A stretch of 37,074 bases of DNA from Gemmatimonadales bacterium (lineage in GTDB: Bacteria; Gemmatimonadota; Gemmatimonadetes; Gemmatimonadales; GWC2-71-9): contig JBBQFH010000031.1 of NCBI GenBank assembly GCA_038321865.1, positions 1 through 37,074 of the forward strand. The letters run 5' to 3'. Below, piece by piece: positions 7,793-20,240 of the stretch. Position 1 is the first letter of the stretch; every line of letters begins with the position of its first letter. A program made the translations under genes and the position numbers. The notes beneath the pieces are model-generated. The model made no database searches and was not told where the DNA came from. It worked only from the letters and a program-made list of their open reading frames with translations.

Positions 7793-10399
7793 TCAGCGCC
7801 CCCGCTTGCCGCGGCCGCGGGGGCCGCCGCCCTGGTGACGCTGCCGGTGGCCGCCCCCGCGGCGGGGACGGTCGTCGTCCCGCTCCGGGGCGGGTTGCCG
7901 GCGAAGCAGCGCCTGCAGTCCCTCGAGCGTGTCCGCCACCAGCGGCGGATGTGATCCGCGCCGGGCCGCGAAGACGACCGGTCGGTCGAGCGGCGGCAGC
8001 TCGCCGGCCCGAATGCGCCGGGCCTGGCCCTCTCGCATGGTCAGTCGCACCACCCCCTGGCCGCCGCGAATCTCGTAGTCGAGCGGCACGGCATCGCCCT
8101 TGATCCGGACGCTGGCGGGAAGCGCATCCAGTGGCTCGGCGATGGCAGGAGCCACCAGGGCGGACGGATCGAGTGCGATCCGAGCCCGGATGAAGCTCTC
8201 CCATCCGTTCACCCCCTCCGCCGCGAGCTGGCTGCGAACGAGCGCCCGCATCGCTCCCGATGCCGCGACCTCGAGCGTTCCGCCGGAGCGCCGCCACCAT
8301 TCGTCGAGACGCTCGAGCGAGCGGCGGAGCCGCCCCTGGTCGGGATGCACCGTCTCACCGGCGAGCAGCGCGTCGGTCAGTGCATCGAGCGCCGCTGGTA
8401 CCAGCGGTTCCGGGACTCGCCCCTCGACCACCTCCGTGTCACCGTCGAGCTCGAAGCCGAAATAGCTCAGCGTGCGGGTGATCGTGATCCGCTGGTGCTT
8501 GCGCGGCCCGCCGACTGCGAGACTGGCCGCGCCCCATTGCGCGTGCTCCCGGATGAGGTCGTAGGAGAGCGTCGTGCCCTCGATCGCCGCGCGCGGCGTC
8601 CCGAACCGGTCGGCGAAGAAGCGAAGATTCCCCGCGACCGCCCCCCAGCTGCCCGCGACCGACGTCTTCGAGACCCGCGCCTCCTGGCCCTCGGCGGTGT
8701 GCTCGTCGATCACGAGGTCGAACGGCATGTACTGCGCGAGCAGGTCGGCAAACAGCTTCCGGACCTCCTTGCCGGCGTAGGGCAGTGTCTTGGGCAGTGC
8801 CAGCTCCAGCGAGCGGTACACCGAGGCCAGGCCCAGCGCGGTGTCCTCGATCGCCTTGACCAGCACTCCGCGCCGCTCGGCCCATTCGGCCAGACCGTCC
8901 TCGAAAAGGTGCCGCGGCAGCCCGTAGACCGTGCCCAGGAATCCATGCTGGTTCACGGCTTCGGCGTACACGTTGTAAGCCGTAAGGTGATCGCTGCCGT
9001 TCACGATCAGCCCGTGCAGATCCCGCTCCTCGCGCGTCATGCGATGGAGCGAATCGATATTCGAGCAGACCGCAACCATGGGCACCAGGTCCGCCGAGGC
9101 GTGCACCAGGAGCTCTCCCCACTGCCGATCCACCGGCAGCGCCTCGACCTCACGCCCGTAGGGTGTCAGTCGCCCGTCCTCGACCAGTCCCCGCCGGGCC
9201 AGGGTGTCCACGGCCCGTCGGTACGCTATCCGGTCGAGGGGAACCGGCAGCTCGAGGTCCCGCGCGTCCACCCCGAGGGCCGCGCAGGTGATCGCCACCC
9301 GCTCCGCGTCGCCGGCAAGCTGGAACTCCGGCGGTGTCGGCCGCAGCTGCTCGAATACCAGCTCCCGGTCGCTGAGGATATACACCTCACCGCCCGCGAC
9401 GCGGCCATGCACCCGGCCGGCCATCTGGAGAATTTCGTTGGCGCCCAGGTAGAGTCGGTGCAGGACGTTCCGTCCCCGGTCCACCACGTTGCCGTACCGC
9501 GCGTCGTAGATGACGACCGTATCCAGGCCGCGCACATTCAGCGCCGATTGTCCGGCGGCCGTCATCGCGAGCAGCCAGGGGCGCTCGACCTCGCCCTCGA
9601 GAAAGGGACGGATGACACGAATCGGCTCGCCGCCGTGATAGAATGCGGTGGTCAGGCGCTTCCACTGCTCCCCCAGCGCGATGGCGAGCTTCTCCACTTC
9701 GGCGCGCGTCGGCACGAACACCGCAACGCCTCGTTTTTCCTTGATGATCTTGCGCATGAACTTTTCATCGAGAAACTCTTCCGGCCGCTGGGTCAGCACC
9801 TCGACCCGGGCCCGCAGCGCGGGATCGAACACCCGGGTCTCCAGCACCTCCGCACTGCCCAGGTACCGGGCGTAGAACGCGGGGTCCACGGTGGCGCTGA
9901 GCCAGATGAAGCGGCACCCGGCACGCTTGCCGAGCGCGAGGCAGAGCTCGAGCTCGGCCGAGGTCTGGTGGATCTCGTCCACGATGATCGTATCGCGGCC
10001 GGTGATGAGGTCGTCCTGGAACCAGCGGCGGGCGATTCCGGTCGTCACGATGACCACGTTCCACGTGGGCGTGTCCGGCGTTGCCTCCCGCTCACGATTG
10101 ACCACACCGACCCGCAGCGGCTCGCGCAGTATGGTCTCCGCGATCGGCCGGATGCCGAGGGTCTTGCCGGTGCCGGTGCCGGCCACGATGCCGAACGCCT
10201 TGCCCGCCGCGGCCCACTCCCGCAATTCGATCCCGTGCTCCCGTTCCAGTACGGTCTCCACGCGGAGGCCGAGCGCCAGCTCGATCGTCTCGCACGCCGC
10301 GCGGGTCGGGGCGATGACGATGATACGCCCTCTGGGAGGGGCGGCGTGACGGAAGGCGTCGGGATCGGGTGGGAGATGGTGGTCGCGGGACGGATGCAT
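7793..10399 (-). CDS. DEAH/RHA-like (HrpA/HrpB-related) SF2 helicase
   Basis: Walker A GTGTGKT, DEIH, SAT, VFVPTRAEV, QMAGRVHGR, HA2-like GRLTPYGR; basic C-terminal tail. Confidence 0.82.
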   Translation of the reverse strand: MHPSRDHHLPPDPDAFRHAAPPRGRIIVIAPTRAACETIELALGLRVETVLEREHGIELREWAAAGKAFGIVAGTGTGKTLGIRPIAETILREPLRVGVVNREREATPDTPTWNVVIVTTGIARRWFQDDLITGRDTIIVDEIHQTSAELELCLALGKRAGCRFIWLSATVDPAFYARYLGSAEVLETRVFDPALRARVEVLTQRPEEFLDEKFMRKIIKEKRGVAVFVPTRAEVEKLAIALGEQWKRLTTAFYHGGEPIRVIRPFLEGEVERPWLLAMTAAGQSALNVRGLDTVVIYDARYGNVVDRGRNVLHRLYLGANEILQMAGRVHGRVAGGEVYILSDRELVFEQLRPTPPEFQLAGDAERVAITCAALGVDARDLELPVPLDRIAYRRAVDTLARRGLVEDGRLTPYGREVEALPVDRQWGELLVHASADLVPMVAVCSNIDSLHRMTREERDLHGLIVNGSDHLTAYNVYAEAVNQHGFLGTVYGLPRHLFEDGLAEWAERRGVLVKAIEDTALGLASVYRSLELALPKTLPYAGKEVRKLFADLLAQYMPFDLVIDEHTAEGQEARVSKTSVAGSWGAVAGNLRFFADRFGTPRAAIEGTTLSYDLIREHAQWGAASLAVGGPRKHQRITITRTLSYFGFELDGDTEVVEGRVPEPLVPAALDALTDALLAGETVHPDQGRLRRSLERLDEWWRRSGGTLEVAASGAMRALVRSQLAAEGVNGWESFIRARIALDPSALVAPAIAEPLDALPASVRIKGDAVPLDYEIRGGQGVVRLTMREGQARRIRAGELPPLDRPVVFAARRGSHPPLVADTLEGLQALLRRQPAPERDDDRPRRGGGHRQRHQGGGPRGRGKRGR

Positions 10400-11869: not shown

Positions 11870-12361
11870 GTGCAGACGTTCCGGGTCTCGGTCAGCAAGG
11901 ACTATCTGGTCTTCGCCTCGGCCCATTTCATCACCTTCAAGGGCCACCACTGCGAGACGCTGCACGGTCACAATTACCGTGTCGGCATCGCGGTCGAAGG
12001 GGCGCTGGACGACGAAGTGCACTTCGTCGTGGACTTCAGCGTGCTGAAGCAGATCGTGCGCCGGCTGGTCGATGCCATCGACCACAAGGTGCTGCTCCCG
12101 CTGCGCAATCCCAAGCTGGAGATCACAGAAGGCGGCGGACTGGTGCACGTCGCCGTGCATGGCGAACCCCGATACGCGTTCCCGCGCGGCGACTGCGCGC
12201 TGCTCCCGATCCCGAACAGCACGGCCGAGCTCCTCGCGGAGTATCTCGGCGTGCAGGTACGTGAGGAGCTGGCCCAGCGCGGGATCTCGCAGCTCTCGCT
12301 GCTCGAGCTCGAGGTCGAGGAAAGTCCGGGCCAGGCGGCCATATTCCGGATCACGCTCTAA
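11870..12361 (+). CDS. 6-pyruvoyl-tetrahydropterin synthase family, CExxHGH (PTPS-I/III) type
   Basis: SD GAGGAG then GTG 11870. F.SAHF, CETLHGHNY, VVDF..LK, IDH, NSTAE.LA and VEE motifs. Confidence 0.9.
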   Translation: MQTFRVSVSKDYLVFASAHFITFKGHHCETLHGHNYRVGIAVEGALDDEVHFVVDFSVLKQIVRRLVDAIDHKVLLPLRNPKLEITEGGGLVHVAVHGEPRYAFPRGDCALLPIPNSTAELLAEYLGVQVREELAQRGISQLSLLELEVEESPGQAAIFRITL

Positions 12362-12391
12362 CACGCCCGTTCAAAGATAGGCTGGCGCATT

Positions 12392-12754
12392 ATGCCGAAG
12401 CCCGAAACGACCTATGCCGGCGCCGAGCTCTCGAAGCGGCTCAGCGCACTCGGCGGATGGACGGAGTCGACCGGCGCCATTCAGCGCACTTACGCCACCG
12501 ATGGTTGGCCGACGACGCTGATGCTGGTGAACGCCATTGGCTTTCTGGCCGAGGCGGCCGATCATCATCCTGATCTCGCGGTGAGCTGGGGCAAGGTGGT
12601 CGTCCGCCTCAACACGCACTCGGCCGGCGGGATCACCGACAAGGATCTCGAGCTCGCGCGCCTGATCGAGGATCGAGCGCTGTGGCGCGCCCACGGCGGC
12701 GCGCTGGCCGGCACGACCAAGAAGTGGGTCACCGCGGAGCCATCGGCGCCGTGA
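12392..12754 (+). CDS. Pterin-4-alpha-carbinolamine dehydratase (PCD/PcbD)
   Basis: Catalytic signature EAADHHPDLAVSW...THSAGGITDKD. Confidence 0.92.
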   Translation: MPKPETTYAGAELSKRLSALGGWTESTGAIQRTYATDGWPTTLMLVNAIGFLAEAADHHPDLAVSWGKVVVRLNTHSAGGITDKDLELARLIEDRALWRAHGGALAGTTKKWVTAEPSAP

Positions 12755-14181
12755 GGCCGGCGACGCCGCTCGCCAGGCGGCTCGCGACGGTGCCGGATCC
12801 ATTGGAGACCTACGCCCGCGTTTCCGGTCTTCCCTTCCCCATTCTGCTCGACAGCGCGGCCCGCGGGCCGATCGGTCGATACTCGTTCGTCACCGCTGAT
12901 CCCATCGCCGTCTTCCGGAGCCGCGGCGTGCGCACCGAGCGCCGTGCGCGCGGCACGACGGGGTGGCTGGACGTGCCCGGAGATGTTCTCACCGCCGTGG
13001 CCCGCGAGATCGGCGGATTCACCGCTGCCGCCCTGCCCGGCGTGCCGCCGTTCCAGGGTGGCGCTGCGGGGTATGTCGGATATGAATGGGGTGGCACTCT
13101 CGAACGGGTGCCGCTGCCGGGCTACGACGATCTCCAGCTCCCGGACGTCGTGCTCGGGTGCTATGACTGGGTCATCGCATGGGATCACGAACTCGCCACG
13201 GCGTGGATCGTCTCGGCCGGGTTCGGGCAAGGGGACGCGGCCGCCCGTCTGGCCGAAGTGCATGCCCTCCTCTCACACTCCGCACCGACCCCGCGCGCGT
13301 CGCCCCCCGGCGGCAGCGCGCCGCGCCCAGCGTCGCACGCCGTTCCCGCCTTCGCTCCGCTGCCGGTGCAGTCCACATTCACGCCCGACGGGTATCGTGC
13401 TGCGGTCGAGCGTGTCCGGCAGTACATCCTGGCCGGCGACGTATTCCAGGTAAACGTGTCCCAGCGGTTCGAGTTGCGGGTCACCATGCCCGCGCTGGAG
13501 CTGTACCGGCGCATTCGTGCACGCCACCCCGCGCCGTTCGCAGCACTAATGGAAACTGAGGAGTGCGCGATCCTGAGTGCGTCCCCCGAAAGATTTCTCC
13601 GGCTCGACGGCCGGCGGGTGGAGGCGCGTCCCATCAAGGGGACCCGGCCCCGCGGCCACCGCCCCGCGGCGGACGACGCGCTCGCCGCCGAACTGCTCGC
13701 GAGCGGGAAGGACCGCGCCGAGAACGTGATGATCGTGGATCTGCTGCGGAACGACCTGTCGCGCGTCTGTCGCGCCGGTTCGGTGACCGTTCCGGAGCTC
13801 TGTGTCCTCGAGCGTCATCCGACGGTGCACCACCTGGTGTCCACCGTGACCGGCGAGCTGCGGGAAGGCGTCAACGGCACGGATCTCCTGCGCGCCGCAT
13901 TTCCCGGCGGATCGATCACCGGCGCCCCGAAGGTGCGGGCCATGCAGATCATCGCAGAGCTGGAACCGGTGCGCCGAGGCGTCTACTGCGGCGCCATCGG
14001 CTATCTCAGCGCGACCGGCGCGATGGACACCAGCATCGCCATCAGGACGGTGGTGCTGCAGGGCGACCGGGCCTGCCTCTCGGCCGGAGGCGGTGTCACG
14101 GCGCAGTCGGATCCGGCCGCCGAGTACCTGGAGACGCTGGACAAGGCGCGGGGACTGATCGCCGCGATGGGCGGCGCATGA
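12751..14181 (+). CDS. pabB: Aminodeoxychorismate synthase component I
   Basis: LLDSA..GRYS, GDVFQVN, SPERF, PIKGTRPR, KDRAENVMIVDLLRND, FPGGSITGAPK. GTGA overlap with the PCD stop. Confidence 0.9.
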   Translation: MRPATPLARRLATVPDPLETYARVSGLPFPILLDSAARGPIGRYSFVTADPIAVFRSRGVRTERRARGTTGWLDVPGDVLTAVAREIGGFTAAALPGVPPFQGGAAGYVGYEWGGTLERVPLPGYDDLQLPDVVLGCYDWVIAWDHELATAWIVSAGFGQGDAAARLAEVHALLSHSAPTPRASPPGGSAPRPASHAVPAFAPLPVQSTFTPDGYRAAVERVRQYILAGDVFQVNVSQRFELRVTMPALELYRRIRARHPAPFAALMETEECAILSASPERFLRLDGRRVEARPIKGTRPRGHRPAADDALAAELLASGKDRAENVMIVDLLRNDLSRVCRAGSVTVPELCVLERHPTVHHLVSTVTGELREGVNGTDLLRAAFPGGSITGAPKVRAMQIIAELEPVRRGVYCGAIGYLSATGAMDTSIAIRTVVLQGDRACLSAGGGVTAQSDPAAEYLETLDKARGLIAAMGGA

Positions 14182-14753
14182 TTCTACTAATCGACAACTA
14201 CGACTCGTTCGTGCACACGCTCGCGGCGTACGTGCGGGAGCTGGGCGGCGAGCCGCTGGTTCGCCGGCACGATGCCATCACGCTGGACGAGATCGCCGCG
14301 CTCGGACCGTCGCACATCATCATTTCACCCGGGCCGGGCGCTCCTGCCGATGCGGGGATCTCCACACCGGCGGTGCGGCGCTTCGGGGCCACCATCCCGA
14401 TGCTCGGCGTCTGCCTGGGGCACCAGTGCATCGCCGCCGCCTACGGCGGCCGGATCGTGCGCGGCCTCCAGCCGATGCACGGGCGCGCCTCGGCGATCAC
14501 GCATGACGGCACCGGGATCCTGGCCGGGCTGCCGGATCCGTTTCAGGCCGCACGCTATCACTCACTGGTGGTGGAGCGGGCCTCGTTGCCGGCGGAACTG
14601 CGGGTGACGGCGACAGCGGGCGACGGGGAAGTCATGGCCATCGCGCACGACCGCCATCCGGTCACCGGCGTGCAGTTTCATCCCGAGTCGGTGTTGAGCG
14701 ACCATGGCCACCAGCTGTTGCGGCAGTTCCTGTCGCTTTCCAGCCCGGTGTGA
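14178..14753 (+). CDS. pabA: Aminodeoxychorismate/anthranilate synthase component II (glutamine amidotransferase)
   Basis: MILLIDNYDSF, ISPGPG, GVCLGHQ, RYHSL, QFHPES. ATGA overlap with pabB. Confidence 0.92.
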   Translation: MILLIDNYDSFVHTLAAYVRELGGEPLVRRHDAITLDEIAALGPSHIIISPGPGAPADAGISTPAVRRFGATIPMLGVCLGHQCIAAAYGGRIVRGLQPMHGRASAITHDGTGILAGLPDPFQAARYHSLVVERASLPAELRVTATAGDGEVMAIAHDRHPVTGVQFHPESVLSDHGHQLLRQFLSLSSPV

Positions 14754-15375
14754 ATTCGGCTCTGCCCTGCTTCCCGCTCTCATAGATCGCGACACAGAGG
14801 GCGGCGATCCCGCCGCCGAGGAGCCAGCCGGCAAGCACGTCGGCGGCCCAATGACGGTCGAGGTACGACCGGCTCACGCCAACCATCAGCGGCACGCCGG
14901 CCGCGGCCGGAACAACCGCGCGCGGAGCGCCGAGCTGCTCGCGGAGCAGCACGTAGCCGATCATGAGCGACACCGCGGTGGCGCCGGTGGTATGTCCGCT
15001 GGGAAAGGCCGGCTGGTGGCGCCCGAAGACGGCTGCGCCCGGACGGCGCCGGCTGTGAAACACTGACTTGATGGCGTGATGCGCCACGAATGCCGCCACC
15101 GACGAGAGCGCGAGTGGCATCGCCGGCCCGAAACCGCGTCGCCGGTGCACCCACGTGGCGGCCAGCAGGGCGCCTGGCAGGTGGACGGGAGGAACGCCGG
15201 CCCAGGTGATCGCGCTGAACGCCGCTGTCGCCGGCGCCGACTGATGGCGCCGCATCCACCGGCGCGCCCGCCGGTCCATCTGCCAGGTGCGCCCGGACCG
15301 CACCGCGATGGAGAGCGCCGTCAGCGCGGCAAAGGCCGCGAGGCCACCGGCAAGCGCGGCGCGCCCACGCGTCAT
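14662..15375 (-). CDS. PAP2 family phosphatase (membrane)
   Basis: K....RRP, FPSGH and SRSYLDRHW..DV motifs. ATG 15375 in an ATGA overlap with the POP stop. Confidence 0.85.
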   Translation of the reverse strand: MTRGRAALAGGLAAFAALTALSIAVRSGRTWQMDRRARRWMRRHQSAPATAAFSAITWAGVPPVHLPGALLAATWVHRRRGFGPAMPLALSSVAAFVAHHAIKSVFHSRRRPGAAVFGRHQPAFPSGHTTGATAVSLMIGYVLLREQLGAPRAVVPAAAGVPLMVGVSRSYLDRHWAADVLAGWLLGGGIAALCVAIYESGKQGRAEFTPGWKATGTAATAGGHGRSTPTRDETARR

Positions 15376-17414
15376 GCCGGCACGCCCAGTTCGTGGAAGA
15401 CGAAGCTCCAGCTGTCGGTGAGCTCGTCGAGCAGCTTCGACAGCGGCTTGCCCGCGCCGTGTCCCGCCTTTGCCTCGAGCCGGAGCAGGATCGGCCGGTC
15501 CGATCCCGTCGCCGCCTGGAGGCGGGCCGCCATCTTCCGCGCGTGCATCGGATCCACTCGCGTATCCGACTCCGCCGTGGCCAGCAGCACCGCCGGGTAC
15601 TTCGCTCCGGCCCGCACATGATGATAGGGCGAGTAGGCGCGGAGCCAGCCGAACTGCTCTGCGTCCTCCGCCGAACCGTATTCCGGAATCCACAGGCGTG
15701 CGATCAGAAACAGATGGTACCGGAGCATGTCGAGCAGCGGCACCTGGATGATCACCGCGTGGAACAGATCGGGGCGCTGAGTGAGCAGCGCACCGGTGAG
15801 CAGCCCGCCATTCGACCCGCCCGCCACGGCGAGGCGCTCGGGCCTGGTGTAGCCCTCCGCGATCAGCCACTCTGCGGCGGCGATGCAGTCGTCGAACGTG
15901 TTCTGCTTGGCGCCCAGCATGCCGCCCTGGTGCCAGGTCTCCCCGTACTCGCCGCCGCCCCGGAGGTTGGGGACCGCGAGCACGCCGCCGTGCTCCAGCC
16001 AGAGCAGGAGCGAGCGCGAGAAGCCCGGCGTCATGCTGATGTTGAAGCCGCCGTACCCCGTGAGGTAGACCGGATTGTTCCCGTCGAGCACGATCCCGCT
16101 CGGCTGCACGACGAACATCGTCACCGGGGTCCCGTCGCGCGATGCGTAGGTCACCTGCCGCACCTCGAATCGCTCCGGCGCCACGTCCGCCTCCACGCGG
16201 CGCCAGAGGGTCTGCTTCCCCGACGGAAGCGCGACCCGATAAATGCTCGGCGGGACCGCATAGGATGAGAAGCCGTACAGGAGCTCGTCGCCGTCGGGTT
16301 CGGAGCCGACCCCGAAGACGCTGCCGATGGCGGGAAGCGGAATGTCCCGAGCGGTGCCGCCGTCGAGATCGGCCAGCACCAGCCGCGACGTCGCGCGCTC
16401 GAGGTAGTTGAGCACCAGCGCGGTCCGGGTGACGGAGACGCCTTCGAGAACCGCGTCGGTGCGGGGCGGCACCAGCGTGCGCCAGCCCGCGCGGCCGGGC
16501 TGCTCCGGATCTGTGACATACAGGCCGTGCGTCGGCGCGTCGAAGTTGCTGCGGATGTACAATCGCCCGCCCACCACCTGCCCCTCGAAGAACGCGGGTT
16601 CATCGCGGGCGACGGCGACGAGCGGACCGTCCGCCGCCAGGTCGCGGACATACAAGTCGGTCTCGTCGAAGGTGCGGGATACGACGATGAGCATCCAGCG
16701 GCCGTCCGAGGAGACGCTTACGCCGGGCCAGTGCTCCTTGGCCTCCGGCCGGAACACCAGCGGATCCACGGAGGGATCGTCGCCCAGGCGGTGGAAGTAA
16801 ATGGTGCGGCCATACTGCTCGTCGCCATCGGGGACGGTGCCGGCAGCGGGATAGCGCGTATAGTAGAAGCCGCTGGAGTCGGGCAGCCAGGCGAGATCGG
16901 CGGCGCGGGTGTCGGGAATGCGGTCGGAAAGGAGTTCGAGCGTATCCAGATCGAGGATTTGGAGCACGCTTCGTTCACTTCCGTCCTCCGACAGGCCGTA
17001 GGCCAGCAGCCGGCCATCCTCGCTCGGATAGTACCAGTCGAGTGCCGTGGTGCCATCGGGGTTGATGACGTTGGGATCGATCGCGACACGGTCGGCGCCG
17101 CCCAGGCCATCGCGAACGTAGAGGACCGGCTGGTTCTGGGTGCCTTCGCGAAGCAGATAGAGGTACCGGCCGCGCGCCGGTGTGGGTACGCCGAGGCTGC
17201 CGATGGCGAGCAGCTCCTCGAGCCGCCGACGGATGCGGGGCCTGGCGTCGATCGCCGCGAAGAAAGCCTCGGTCTCCGCGTTCTGCTCCGCCGTCCATTG
17301 CGCCACGGCGGGATCGTCCGAATCCTCCAGCCAGCGGTAGGGATCGGCCACCGCTTCGCCATGGAGGATGTCCACCGCGTCCGACACCAGCGTCCCGCGG
17401 CGGTCAGTCGCCAA
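15372..17414 (-). CDS. Prolyl oligopeptidase (S9A)
   Basis: DPYRWLED, GYGGFN, NLRGGGEYG, GGSNGGLL (catalytic Ser), DTRV, GHGAGK. TTG start overlaps the pfkA stop. Confidence 0.94.
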   Translation of the reverse strand: MATDRRGTLVSDAVDILHGEAVADPYRWLEDSDDPAVAQWTAEQNAETEAFFAAIDARPRIRRRLEELLAIGSLGVPTPARGRYLYLLREGTQNQPVLYVRDGLGGADRVAIDPNVINPDGTTALDWYYPSEDGRLLAYGLSEDGSERSVLQILDLDTLELLSDRIPDTRAADLAWLPDSSGFYYTRYPAAGTVPDGDEQYGRTIYFHRLGDDPSVDPLVFRPEAKEHWPGVSVSSDGRWMLIVVSRTFDETDLYVRDLAADGPLVAVARDEPAFFEGQVVGGRLYIRSNFDAPTHGLYVTDPEQPGRAGWRTLVPPRTDAVLEGVSVTRTALVLNYLERATSRLVLADLDGGTARDIPLPAIGSVFGVGSEPDGDELLYGFSSYAVPPSIYRVALPSGKQTLWRRVEADVAPERFEVRQVTYASRDGTPVTMFVVQPSGIVLDGNNPVYLTGYGGFNISMTPGFSRSLLLWLEHGGVLAVPNLRGGGEYGETWHQGGMLGAKQNTFDDCIAAAEWLIAEGYTRPERLAVAGGSNGGLLTGALLTQRPDLFHAVIIQVPLLDMLRYHLFLIARLWIPEYGSAEDAEQFGWLRAYSPYHHVRAGAKYPAVLLATAESDTRVDPMHARKMAARLQAATGSDRPILLRLEAKAGHGAGKPLSKLLDELTDSWSFVFHELGVPA

Positions 17415-18483
17415 GGCTGATTCCGAGCTCCCGCGCGGTCATGATCGTATCGGAATCGAGCGGGACGTTCTTGGTGCGGCCGATGACGTCGGCGATCGGC
17501 ACCCGGGTGATCGTCGGCCCGTTGAGGCCGACCATGCACCCGAAGGCGCCGTCGGCGATCGCCCGGACGGCCGCCGCCCCGAAGCGGAGCGCGAGCAGGC
17601 GATCGTAGGTGGTGGGCGAGCCGCCGCGCTGCAGATGGCCGAGGACCAGCGTCCGGACCTCCTTGCCGGTCACCTCGCCGATCGCGCGAGCCACCTGGCT
17701 GCCGATCCCGCCGAGCCGGTCCACCGTCCCCATGCCGCGGCGCTCGACCAGCGCGACCGTGCCGTCCTTCGGCACCGCGCCCTCCGCCACGACCACGATA
17801 CTGAAGCGGCGGCCCGCCGCCTCCCGCTCGAGAATCTTCGCGCTCACGCGCGCCAGATCGAACGGAATCTCCGGAATCAGGATGACGTCGGCACTTCCTG
17901 AGATGCCGCTGTTGAGCGCGATCCAGCCGGCGTGACGTCCCATGAGCTCGACGACCATCACCCGGTCGTGGCTCTCGGCGGTGGAGTGCAGGCGGTCGAG
18001 CGCTTCGGTCGCGGTGCCGACGGCGGTGTCGAATCCGAATGTGCGCTGAGTACCGAACACGTCGTTGTCGATCGTCTTGGGCACGCAGACGACGGGCATG
18101 CCCTTGAGCGACAGCTGGTGGGCAATCTGCAGGCTGCCATCACCGCCGATCGAGACCAGCGCGTCGAAACCGGACGCGTGGAAGGCACCGACCAGGTCGT
18201 CCGACCGGTCGCACTCGTACTCCGCGCCCGACTCGTCGCGCCGGACGTAGCGGAACGGATTGCCGCGGTTGGTCGTCCCGAGTATGGTGCCGCCCAGGTG
18301 GGTAATCCCGCGCACCTCGGCCGGCCCGAGCGGGACGACCCCATCGAAGCTGAGCAGCCCTTCGAATCCGCGCTGGATTCCGTACGAGCGCCAGCCACGC
18401 TGGTGGGCCGAGAGCACCACGGCCCGGATGACGGCATTGAGACCCGGCGCGTCGCCGCCGCCGGTGGAGATCGCGATTCGCGT
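17404..18483 (-). CDS. pfkA: 6-phosphofructokinase (PfkA family, GGDG/PKTIDND type), apparent ACG start
   Basis: The conserved N-terminus RIAISTGGGDAPGLNAVIRA lies upstream of the track start (18420). The codon at the Met position is ACG (18483-18481), 6 nt after GAGGAG; in-frame TGA at 18507-18505. GGTILGT, GGDG, PKTIDND, MGR and LGHLQRGG motifs. Confidence 0.92.
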   Translation of the reverse strand, partial: TRIAISTGGGDAPGLNAVIRAVVLSAHQRGWRSYGIQRGFEGLLSFDGVVPLGPAEVRGITHLGGTILGTTNRGNPFRYVRRDESGAEYECDRSDDLVGAFHASGFDALVSIGGDGSLQIAHQLSLKGMPVVCVPKTIDNDVFGTQRTFGFDTAVGTATEALDRLHSTAESHDRVMVVELMGRHAGWIALNSGISGSADVILIPEIPFDLARVSAKILEREAAGRRFSIVVVAEGAVPKDGTVALVERRGMGTVDRLGGIGSQVARAIGEVTGKEVRTLVLGHLQRGGSPTTYDRLLALRFGAAAVRAIADGAFGCMVGLNGPTITRVPIADVIGRTKNVPLDSDTIMTARELGISLGD

Positions 18484-18484
18484 G

Positions 18485-18715
18485 TTACGCTCCTCTTTCC
18501 CTGATCAATCTGACGATTTCGCCGGGGGCCGCATGACGCCCGGCGGTTTTTTTTGAAAAGATGGGCACGTCGTCCACCGCCACATCGAACCGGCCGCCCG
18601 AGGCCGGAATCAGCTGGACGGTGACGCCCGGAAAAGCCTGCTCCAGCTCAGCCGCCAGACCGGCGGCTCGGGGCTGGTAGTTTCAAACGACGCAGTATTG
18701 TACGCGCACCCGCAT
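18485..18715 (-). CDS. Rdx family (SelW/SelT/SelH-like) selenoprotein, CxxU, 76 aa
   Basis: Manual translation MRVRVQYCVV(U)NYQPRAAGLAAELEQAFPGVTVQLIPASGGRFDVAVDDVPIFSKKTAGRHAAPGEIVRLIRERGA*. In-frame TGA at codon 11 (18685-18683); GG.F.V and IFSK Rdx motifs; GAGG SD upstream. Confidence 0.9.
18643..18677 (-). promoter_or_regulatory. Bacterial SECIS element
   Basis: mRNA CCAGC-CCCG-AGCCGCC-GGUCU-GGCGGCU-GA-GCUGG. Two-part stem; the G-led apical loop GGUCU begins 21 nt after the UGA and resembles the E. coli fdhF SECIS apex. Confidence 0.8.
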
Positions 18716-18830
18716 GATGACCGCCTCGCTCGTGTGAATGCCGCTCTCGATGCGAATCGTACTGCGCCCGGTTGGTGCTGCCAAGTGCGCGCCTTGTCAG
18801 CCCGCCGTGCGCCACGTATCTATTGAAACC

Positions 18831-20240
18831 ATGCGAACCTGCCTGCAACGAAGCCTGCTCGTGCTCGGCGCCGTGGCCGCCCTCGCGACCCGGGGCGAAG
18901 CCCAGCGCCGCCGCTACCTGCTCGAGGCGAGCGCGGGCGGCACCTACATGTCGTTCGACAACGCGACCAACCTCCATTCCGCCTTCGGCGGGGTCGGCCG
19001 GCTGGGGTTGTGGCTCCCCCTGCACCTGTCGGTCGAAGGCGAAGCGCTGCTCACGAGCCCCCGCACGACGATCAACGGTTTCGCCTGGACCGCGCGGTTC
19101 TTCACCGGTTCGCTTCTGGCCAACATCCCGGTCGGCAACACCAGCTCGTTCTTTCTCCGGGCCGGCTACGGCACCTCCAAGTACGACTCCGACCGCTGCT
19201 CGGCCGGAATCTCGTTCGTGGACATCGGCCCCTGCGGAAGCACGCCGGTGCTGATCGGGGGGCTCGGCTTTCGCGCCGGCATTTCACAGACGCTGATGCT
19301 CCGGATGGAGGGCGCGGCCAACCACAGCACATCGAAGAGTCTCACGAATTTCGGCGGCTCGGTCGGGCTCAGCGTGATGCTCGGCAGCAAGTCGGCCACG
19401 GACGTGGATCACGACGGCGTCTACGATACCGACGACCGGTGCCCCAACACGCCGCGCGGCGTGCTCACGGATCGCCGTGGCTGCCCGACCGACACCGATC
19501 ACGACGGCGTCCCCGACGGGCTGGATCGCTGCCCGACGTCGGCGCCGGGCACGGTGGTCGATACAGCGGGCTGCCCCCGTGATACCGACCGCGACGGCGT
19601 GGCCGATGGCCTCGACCGCTGCCCGAATACGCCGGCGGGTGCCGCTGTGGATGCTGCCGGCTGCTCGATCGACAGCGACAAGGATGGTGTCGCCGACGGC
19701 CTCGACCGCTGCCCCGATACCCCCGCCGGCGCGAGCGTCGATCAGCTCGGATGCCCGGGTGACGAGGATGGCGACGGCGTGTTCGACGGGCTCGACCGCT
19801 GCCCGCACACGCCGCAGGGACAGACCGTCAACTCGCTCGGTTGCCCGCCGTCGGGCGGCGCGTCCGGCGGTCCGACCACCGCCCCTCTGGAAACGACCAT
19901 CCTCCACGGCGTGGTCTTCGCCCCCGGCAGCGCGCGCCTGGGCCCGGAGTCGCAGCCCGTGCTCGACTCGCTCGCCCGAACATTGCTGGACAATCCCGCG
20001 CTGATGGTGGAGATCGGTGGGCACACCGACAACACCGGCAACGCGGCCGCCAACCTGAATATTTCGCGGCTGCGGGCGGAAGCGGTGCGCAACTATCTGA
20101 TCGCGCGAAAGGTGCCGTTCACGCGGCTGGTGGCGAAGGGCTACGGATCCGCCATGCCGCTGTCGACCGCGAACACCGACGCGGCACGCTCGGCGAACCG
20201 ACGCGTCGAGATCAAGCCGCTGCCGACCACTCCGCCATGA
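18831..20240 (+). CDS. OmpA family protein: N-terminal OMP beta-barrel, thrombospondin type 3 repeats, C-terminal peptidoglycan-binding domain
   Basis: Signal peptide from ATG 18831; DxDxDGVxDxxDRCP repeats; GHTD..G....N..IS..RA..V, GYG...P, NRRVEI. Confidence 0.92.
   Translation: MRTCLQRSLLVLGAVAALATRGEAQRRRYLLEASAGGTYMSFDNATNLHSAFGGVGRLGLWLPLHLSVEGEALLTSPRTTINGFAWTARFFTGSLLANIPVGNTSSFFLRAGYGTSKYDSDRCSAGISFVDIGPCGSTPVLIGGLGFRAGISQTLMLRMEGAANHSTSKSLTNFGGSVGLSVMLGSKSATDVDHDGVYDTDDRCPNTPRGVLTDRRGCPTDTDHDGVPDGLDRCPTSAPGTVVDTAGCPRDTDRDGVADGLDRCPNTPAGAAVDAAGCSIDSDKDGVADGLDRCPDTPAGASVDQLGCPGDEDGDGVFDGLDRCPHTPQGQTVNSLGCPPSGGASGGPTTAPLETTILHGVVFAPGSARLGPESQPVLDSLARTLLDNPALMVEIGGHTDNTGNAAANLNISRLRAEAVRNYLIARKVPFTRLVAKGYGSAMPLSTANTDAARSANRRVEIKPLPTTPP
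19401..19847 (+). repeat. Five coding repeats of about 87 bp (29 aa), TSP type 3 Ca-binding
   Basis: D.D.DGV.D..DRCP.TP.G..VD..GC repeated five times. Confidence 0.85.

Follow-up and report, generated by a model that had tools for sequence, protein, structure and literature searches.

In a bacterium of the order Gemmatimonadales, a gene predicted to encode a selenocysteine (Sec)-containing protein of the SelW/SelT/SelH (Rdx) family ends one nucleotide before the phosphofructokinase gene pfkA, which appears to begin at ACG, and the two genes are adjacent throughout the order wherever both were located. The pair lies in a stretch of 37,074 nucleotides (nt) from GenBank assembly GCA_038321865.1 (contig JBBQFH010000031.1, positions 1 to 37,074 of the forward strand; hereafter the window), at the head of four minus-strand genes for Rdx, PfkA, a prolyl oligopeptidase (POP) and a PAP2-family phosphatase (14662..18715). 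An earlier note on this DNA had proposed that the selenoprotein serves as a translational leader through which selenium gates the whole string. The underlying observation is confirmed and the interpretation is partly supported: the conserved unit is Rdx-pfkA, not the four-gene string, and the reading we favour, at about even confidence, is a passive selenium dependence of pfkA that arises as a by-product of ordinary translational coupling, with no selected switch. The pair itself is probably kept for co-expression.

The first open reading frame (ORF) has 76 codons and carries C-V-V-TGA at codons 8-11. Scanned with U read as C, it scores 78.4 bits against PF10262 (cut-off 22.6), 64.4 against TIGR02174 (cut-off 34.2) and 91.2 against NF041051 (cut-off 88), and its CVV-TGA aligns with the CxxC of 2fa8, relatives with solved structures being available, and with that of two Cys-type loci. 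TIGR02174 matches occur in 185 of 301 genomes of the phylum; 148 of the 150 matches listed, with another 36 outside the listing, hold a single in-frame TGA. The TIGR02174, pfk-match and selB tallies include one unpublished genome (G177), on which no other claim rests. A 7-bp hairpin begins 15 nt past the UGA and places its GGUCU loop at 21 nt, which agrees with the bacterial consensus for a selenocysteine insertion sequence (SECIS) given in the accessible text of PMC13188914 (G early in a small loop, 16-37 nt after the UGA, stem of 4-16 bp). The outer pair of this hairpin joins two third codon positions. Of 112 loci, 83 have it as a Watson-Crick pair, in four types and with compensatory changes, whereas shuffles, which ignore kinship, gave a mean of 46 and a maximum of 61. 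The genome also encodes tRNA-Sec, selA, selB and selD. In 39 of the 41 relatives examined for it, selA exceeds its cut-off; a survey of selB at E 1e-80 misses true genes and was used as a tally only, with five genomes rechecked. Judged by these features this is a real SelW/Rdx selenoprotein gene, with Sec predicted to be inserted at UGA11.

The Rdx ORF spans the full domain, and invariant residues along its whole length are alike in 77 linked and 35 unlinked copies, so that the first ORF reads as a full, folded and working selenoenzyme, not a disposable leader peptide. No Cys version of Rdx was found ahead of pfkA, and the two Cys-type copies are of a longer, different form and lie away from pfkA. 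In two loci, L148 (G071, an internal deletion) and L150 (G101, an altered C-terminus), Rdx looks damaged while TGA, hairpin and adjacent pfkA are intact; these could be assembly errors, or an ORF that has outlasted its protein. Three further likely selenoprotein genes with in-frame TGA were seen in this genome, at C10:29639 (+), C27:39358 (+) and C53:11757 (+). We take two of them to be peroxiredoxin-like (TKGU, TPGU) and one to be a CooC-like P-loop ATPase (GAGUMC), the last of which sits at the end of an apparent hydrogenase-maturation cluster.

The second gene scores 429.3 bits against TIGR02483, just short of the cut-off of 430.55, and 367 against PRK03202 (cut-off 253). GGDG is found in 104 of 112 PfkA homologs and PKTIDND in 111 of 112, motifs that we assume to mark the ATP-type enzyme. 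In the assembly, which is 89.85% complete, neither a second phosphofructokinase (PFK)-family gene nor an Edd/IlvD-family gene was found; zwf and rho are present. Two rho-like genes were seen, at C43:15416 and C23:19592, one over and one under the TIGR00767 cut-off.

The stop codon of Rdx (TAA, 18487-18485) is followed by a single C and then by the ACG (18483-18481), which aligns with Met1 of pfkA in relatives. Upstream of it no in-frame ATG, GTG or TTG occurs before an in-frame TGA seven codons up, and the next canonical start, GTG 18420 at codon 22, would delete the GGGDAPG motif; on these grounds the start can only be ACG. The Shine-Dalgarno (SD)-like AGGAG lies 6 nt ahead of it, within the final Rdx codons, and UGA11 lies 199 nt upstream. 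The earlier note had described this junction, the SD in the last Rdx codons and a distance of about 200 nt from the UGA, as well as a POP start at TTG overlapping the pfkA stop and a PAP2 start at an ATGA overlap, and the sequence bears it out on each point, the overlap of POP with the pfkA stop being 11 nt. A contig from run X1 covers 18061-18779 with 0 differences from the window; this run may be the source sample, so its agreement rules out an assembler slip and is not independent biology. An assembly error behind the ACG was rejected, given that identity and the recurrence of near-cognate starts in one clade. Run X2 gave a related contig across the locus, with 104 differences in about 1590 letters. 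For annotation the consequence is plain: a standard ORF call misses the selenoprotein and puts the pfkA start at codon 22, losing the first catalytic motif.

Across 112 fetched TGA-Rdx loci from families f1-f9, pfkA stands directly after Rdx in 50 of 56 loci of f1, 16 of 17 of f2, 8 of 8 of f3 and 3 of 3 of f4 (a family of the same class), and in 0 of 28 loci of f5-f9. Within the order the two genes are adjacent in all 74 fetched loci in which both were located, in 14 of 14 extra fetched loci and in 34 of 34 genomes read by eye from listed coordinates. With the window included, adjacency thus holds in 122 of 122 genomes of the order with both genes located, a count that leaves aside G170 and G206, whose pfk matches have no listed position, and matches outside the listings. 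The seven unlinked Rdx loci inside the order belong to genomes without a match to this pfkA at E 1e-60. Both genes were located but apart in 12 genomes of f5 and f6. Among named Gemmatimonad loci pfkA is adjacent in 8 of 10; among loci of other groups, mostly Acidobacteriota and Desulfobacterota, it is adjacent in 0 of 19, all of which keep the TGA and a similar hairpin (some of the loci in these two sets are short). In one genome (G035, C23:40073-40518) Rdx is followed by an apparent pfkA fragment, with no full match among the matches listed, and decay of pfkA is possibly under way there.

This linkage is far better conserved than either flank. Flanking genes change often: OmpA, a chemoreceptor, DUF4015 and others are found upstream, and of the 77 linked loci 26 have a helicase gene after pfkA and 18 have POP there. 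PAP2 behind POP was seen in this genome only and in none of 20 longer loci of relatives, and five genus members hold only about 30%-identical PAP2 paralogs, on other contigs; PAP2 is a lineage-specific addition. The four-gene selenium operon of the earlier note is a local arrangement. Of the traits that the note wished to see compared across relatives, the adjacency of Rdx and pfkA is conserved throughout the order, and spacing and weak start are not. The helicase, which in this window lies 4 kb further down (7793-10399, minus strand), past opposite-strand pabB/pabA-like genes, directly follows Rdx in five genomes without pfkA (e.g. L099:2608-4899), and may be the ancestral third gene.

Rdx appears to be the first gene of this unit, as it has a divergent upstream neighbour in 64 of the 75 linked loci that could be scored, including 56 of 56 in f1 and f3. 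A promoter-like pair, by a pattern picked after inspecting the loci, lies ahead of Rdx in 38 of the 58 loci examined from two families, where shuffles gave 2.0, and occurs inside Rdx in one of 58 loci and nowhere inside the Rdx of this genome. An internal promoter for pfkA, raised by the earlier note as a counter-explanation, was rejected on sequence grounds as not conserved. In Rdx-less genomes (G252, G131) the same promoter motif stands directly before pfkA. Neither selA nor selB was found in four of four Rdx-less genomes rechecked (the rechecked genomes are 92-98% complete), while the sole Rdx-bearing member of their genus has selA, selB and tRNA-Sec. It seems that a lineage giving up Sec loses the Rdx gene and does not convert it to a Cys form. 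A role of Rdx as dedicated leader is not supported, given this, the integrity of unlinked Rdx and the absence of conserved spacing, start codon or masking structure. In one clade (L015, L016, L017, L025, L026, L027, L093, L105, L111) a conserved -10-like hexamer lies 12-15 nt before the Rdx start, a spacing that suggests a leaderless mRNA; pfkA there mostly has a 4-nt overlap and a GTG or TTG start.

Gaps between Rdx and pfkA run from -10 to +100 nt, with 51 of 77 at or below 10 nt, 6 at 11-20 nt and 20 above 20 nt, and on the PfkA tree the gap class switches at least 17 times. In the 77 loci pfkA starts with ATG (46), GTG (20), TTG (6), CTG (3) or ACG (1), one locus being unassigned. When 14 genomes were added and the unassigned locus and one cut-off locus were dropped, pfkA had a start other than ATG in 29 of the 55 loci whose gap is 6 nt or less and in 1 of the 34 with a longer gap; with overlaps excluded the former figure is 9 of 26 against the same 1 of 34. 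The ACG is unique to this genome among surveyed loci, and near-cognate starts are confined to one supported clade of eight genomes around it, which holds the ACG, four CTG and a TTG, and in which a member with a 30-nt gap has ATG. All five near-cognate starts stand at gaps of -4 to +2 nt. This restriction to tight gaps in one clade fits a supply of ribosomes by reinitiation, and the combination of a weak start with a tight junction suggests that the two genes are translationally coupled there. Among 38 anchored control genes of this genome, a small sample, none has a forced near-cognate start: 31 are canonical at the aligned start, 5 are canonical within 7 codons upstream and 2 are unassigned.

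Taken together these observations suggest how pfkA could come to depend on selenium. We infer a single transcript from the promoter upstream of Rdx. With selenium present, SelB would insert Sec at UGA11, and the ribosome that completes Rdx would reinitiate at the pfkA ACG by way of the embedded SD. If Sec insertion fails, most ribosomes would stop 199 nt upstream of the ACG, beyond the range of reinitiation observed in E. coli and Haloferax, leaving only weak de novo initiation at ACG, and PfkA output would fall. The junction, at +1 nt and with its SD in the upstream gene, lies within the range for termination-reinitiation (TeRe), about -8 to +10 nt. According to the accessible text of PMC10666635, reinitiation in E. 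coli and Haloferax drops steeply with distance and is nearly gone by about 20 nt; most non-canonical codons in E. coli are described in the available part of 10.1101/063800 as initiating at 0.1-1% of AUG, and CUG at 1-2%. Selection on the pfkA start would be relaxed in tight junctions, reaching CTG and ACG in one clade, and relatives with long gaps and ATG would show weak translational dependence or none. We regard such dependence as a by-product because the share of tight gaps is close to that among near co-directional pairs of this genome (51 of 77 against 1091 of 1825, about 60%, with a rough gene caller) and because the pfkA-POP junction, which is free of Sec, has similarly weak starts, POP starting with TTG or GTG at the same place in five of five genus members with the locus.

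Several findings weigh against this explanation. Tested on independent pairs, the tie between gap and start does not reach significance (9 pairs; mean 4.5 in the same direction, 0.1 in the opposite; median p 0.125), overlaps of -4 force an NTG start by geometry, and a GTG start needs no coupling, since GTG is kept in seven Rdx-less genomes of genus g36. The pfkA start of this genome opens more easily (9.1 kcal/mol) than background (medians 12.3-14.7) and has a good SD, so that weak independent initiation at the ACG is possible. As for the by-product, the two genes stay together far more faithfully than expected from chance synteny, and none of the loci found has a Cys version before pfkA. The 16S 3' end was not found in the assembly, and the anti-SD motif behind the SD duplex energies is our assumption.

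The earlier note had also suggested that short pairings could mask the pfkA start. Such pairings exist, but not above chance: junction folds are no better than shuffled (z = +1.0 and +0.43), a hairpin of at least 4 pairs over the pfkA start is rarer than at random coding positions (9 of 76 loci against 234 of 760), and GGAG and CTCC co-occur at the junction in 3 of 76 loci. A fusion of Rdx and PfkA by frameshift was rejected, with gaps in all three frames (40/20/17); no longer protein containing the post-UGA part of Rdx was found, which is weak evidence. A bypass ORF from near the UGA to the pfkA start was likewise set aside, being present in 5 of 77 loci and absent from this genome. An Rfam scan of the window gave no matches.

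The same features could instead reflect a selected gate, in which low selenium cuts PfkA through coupling in tight lineages and through Rho polarity in loose ones; we think this unlikely. In its fuller form, which we hold to be improbable to a similar degree, the Gemmatimonadales would use a working selenoprotein as selenium sensor, UGA11 gating the sole PFK so as to throttle glycolysis and send carbon to NADPH, and this clade would have sharpened the gate by its CTG or ACG start. The UGA does come early in the first gene, the pair is invariably kept together where both genes were located, and the PFK is the only one found in a genome with zwf and rho and with no Edd/IlvD-family gene found; two other checked candidate selenoproteins of this genome stand last in their gene strings. 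Opening the pfkA start also takes more energy at tight junctions than where Rdx is missing (12.5 against 9.7 kcal/mol, in kin that are not independent). Against a gate, the gap class changes repeatedly, 20 of 77 gaps exceed 20 nt, nearly all before ATG, and the masking structure is not conserved. The stretch that would go untranslated is rich in G (C/G median 0.81), which a typical Rho site is not. With UGA and hairpin unchanged, Rdx is retained in seven genomes of the order without a pfkA match and at 19 of 19 loci of other groups without adjacent pfkA; unlinked copies share the invariant residues of linked ones, and either gene is found without the other. As for precedent, the accessible text of PMC3892789 reports selenium-dependent polarity for fdhF of Treponema primitia and none such for E. 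coli fdhF. Were the gate true, glucose-6-phosphate would be diverted to the pentose phosphate pathway, and so to NADPH, when selenoprotein antioxidants cannot be made.

At the other extreme, pfkA might show no meaningful selenium dependence at all, with low constitutive initiation at the ACG from its own SD, or frequent misreading of the UGA, and a promoter that is merely shared. It would suit such a reading that in this genome the SD is good and stands 6 nt from the ACG, local structure is weak and tight junctions are common, and that in Rdx-less genomes pfkA itself comes first after the same promoter motif. We doubt it, in view of the confinement of near-cognate starts to the tightest gaps and of the very weak de novo initiation at ACG in E. 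coli described in the available part of 10.1101/063800, a poor fit for the sole PFK found.

A further reading is that Rdx acts on PfkA, by redox control or in a complex, and that coupling serves their stoichiometry. The strong linkage would suit a partnership, and overlapping gene pairs are enriched for complex subunits according to the accessible text of PMC10666635. No PfkA cysteine tracks linkage, however: the commonest occurs in 68 of the 76 linked proteins and in 32 of the 36 unlinked ones, and is Ser here. Each gene also persists alone, and we judge this reading very improbable.

The arrangement resembles several known systems and departs from each. In leader-peptide attenuators of the trpL type, and in regulatory upstream ORFs, the first ORF contains a codon that is decoded according to nutrient supply. 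UGA11 is likewise a nutrient-sensing codon in a first ORF; here the ORF is a conserved enzyme, with no conserved alternative structure and no fixed spacing. Translational coupling is ubiquitous as far as described in the accessible portions of PMC6728339, PMC10666635 and PMC12548453, and the pair resembles TeRe coupling there in its gap within -8 to +10 nt and in an SD inside the upstream coding region; it differs in the conditional stop of its upstream gene and its near-cognate downstream start. In the main text of the 2025 coupling review the string 'selen' occurs 0 times. The fdhF-Sec polarity of T. primitia is alike in that an undecoded UGA lowers downstream expression, but it is transcriptional and, in the accessible text of PMC3892789, measured within the selenoprotein gene, whereas what we propose here from sequence is mainly reinitiation and would affect an unrelated glycolytic gene. 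A 5' SECIS-like element mediates repression of selAB in E. coli (second-hand in the available part of 10.64898/2026.03.03.709296). There too the supply of Sec-tRNA controls operon translation; SelB, however, acts on an untranslated element to repress at high selenium, with no UGA decoding, and the target is the Sec machinery.

According to the accessible parts of PMC13188914 and PMC1794560, SelW-like (Rdx) proteins form a predicted family of prokaryotic selenoproteins, of which organisms that use Sec have few Cys forms. The Rdx studied here is like other bacterial SelW-like selenoproteins (PF10262/TIGR02174) in its CxxU, size, profile scores and SECIS, and differs in its linkage to pfkA, the available text of PMC13188914 mentioning clustering with peroxiredoxin instead. 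The main text of that 2026 review contains neither 'phosphofructokinase' nor 'Gemmatimonad'. The earlier note knew of no description of such an arrangement, and our literature search, by titles and abstract starts, with most subscription journals and supplements outside it, likewise gave no SelW-pfkA operon and no selenoprotein that gates a gene of glycolysis, although the pair might stand in some gene-neighbourhood table. A conserved unit of Rdx(Sec) and pfkA, with near-cognate starts in a single clade, thus appears to be new.

Table 1. Features of the Rdx-pfkA locus in window coordinates.
Feature	Position	Strand	Basis
Sigma-70-like promoter candidate, TTGGCA-N17-TACGAT	18756..18784	-	Sole promoter-like site in 18300-19000, 0.1 expected; putative function
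SD-like GAGGCGG of Rdx gene	18721..18727	-	Read from sequence; putative function
SelW/SelT/SelH (Rdx) selenoprotein gene, 76 aa, CVVU	18485..18715	-	PF10262, TIGR02174, NF041051
UGA Sec codon (codon 11)	18683..18685	-	Sequence; TGA here in 112 of 114 Rdx loci
Bacterial SECIS hairpin, 7-bp stem, GGUCU loop	18650..18668	-	Fold and pair counts over 112 loci
SD-like AGGAG of pfkA, within final Rdx codons	18490..18494	-	Sequence; anti-SD duplex -7.2 kcal/mol
pfkA, mixed-substrate-type 6-phosphofructokinase, predicted ACG start	17404..18483	-	Profile matches and alignment to relatives
Prolyl oligopeptidase (POP, S9), predicted TTG start	15372..17414	-	11-nt overlap with pfkA stop
PAP2-family phosphatase	14662..15375	-	ATGA overlap with POP; lineage-specific addition

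Beyond the string, the PAP2 ORF overlaps a convergent pabA/trpG-like gene by 92 nt (14662-14753). This gene closes a plus-strand string (11870-14753) that converges on the operon and comprises pabB/pabA-like genes together with genes that we take, in part from a relative's match, to be PTPS/QueD-like and pterin dehydratase-like.

The strong linkage to pfkA is a clue to what bacterial SelW-like proteins do. More broadly, the pair provides a clean case in which to ask whether recoding of a stop codon in a leading gene controls a housekeeping gene unrelated to it, for which the order offers natural variants in its tight and loose junctions, its ACG, CTG, GTG and ATG starts, and its genomes that lack Rdx or pfkA.

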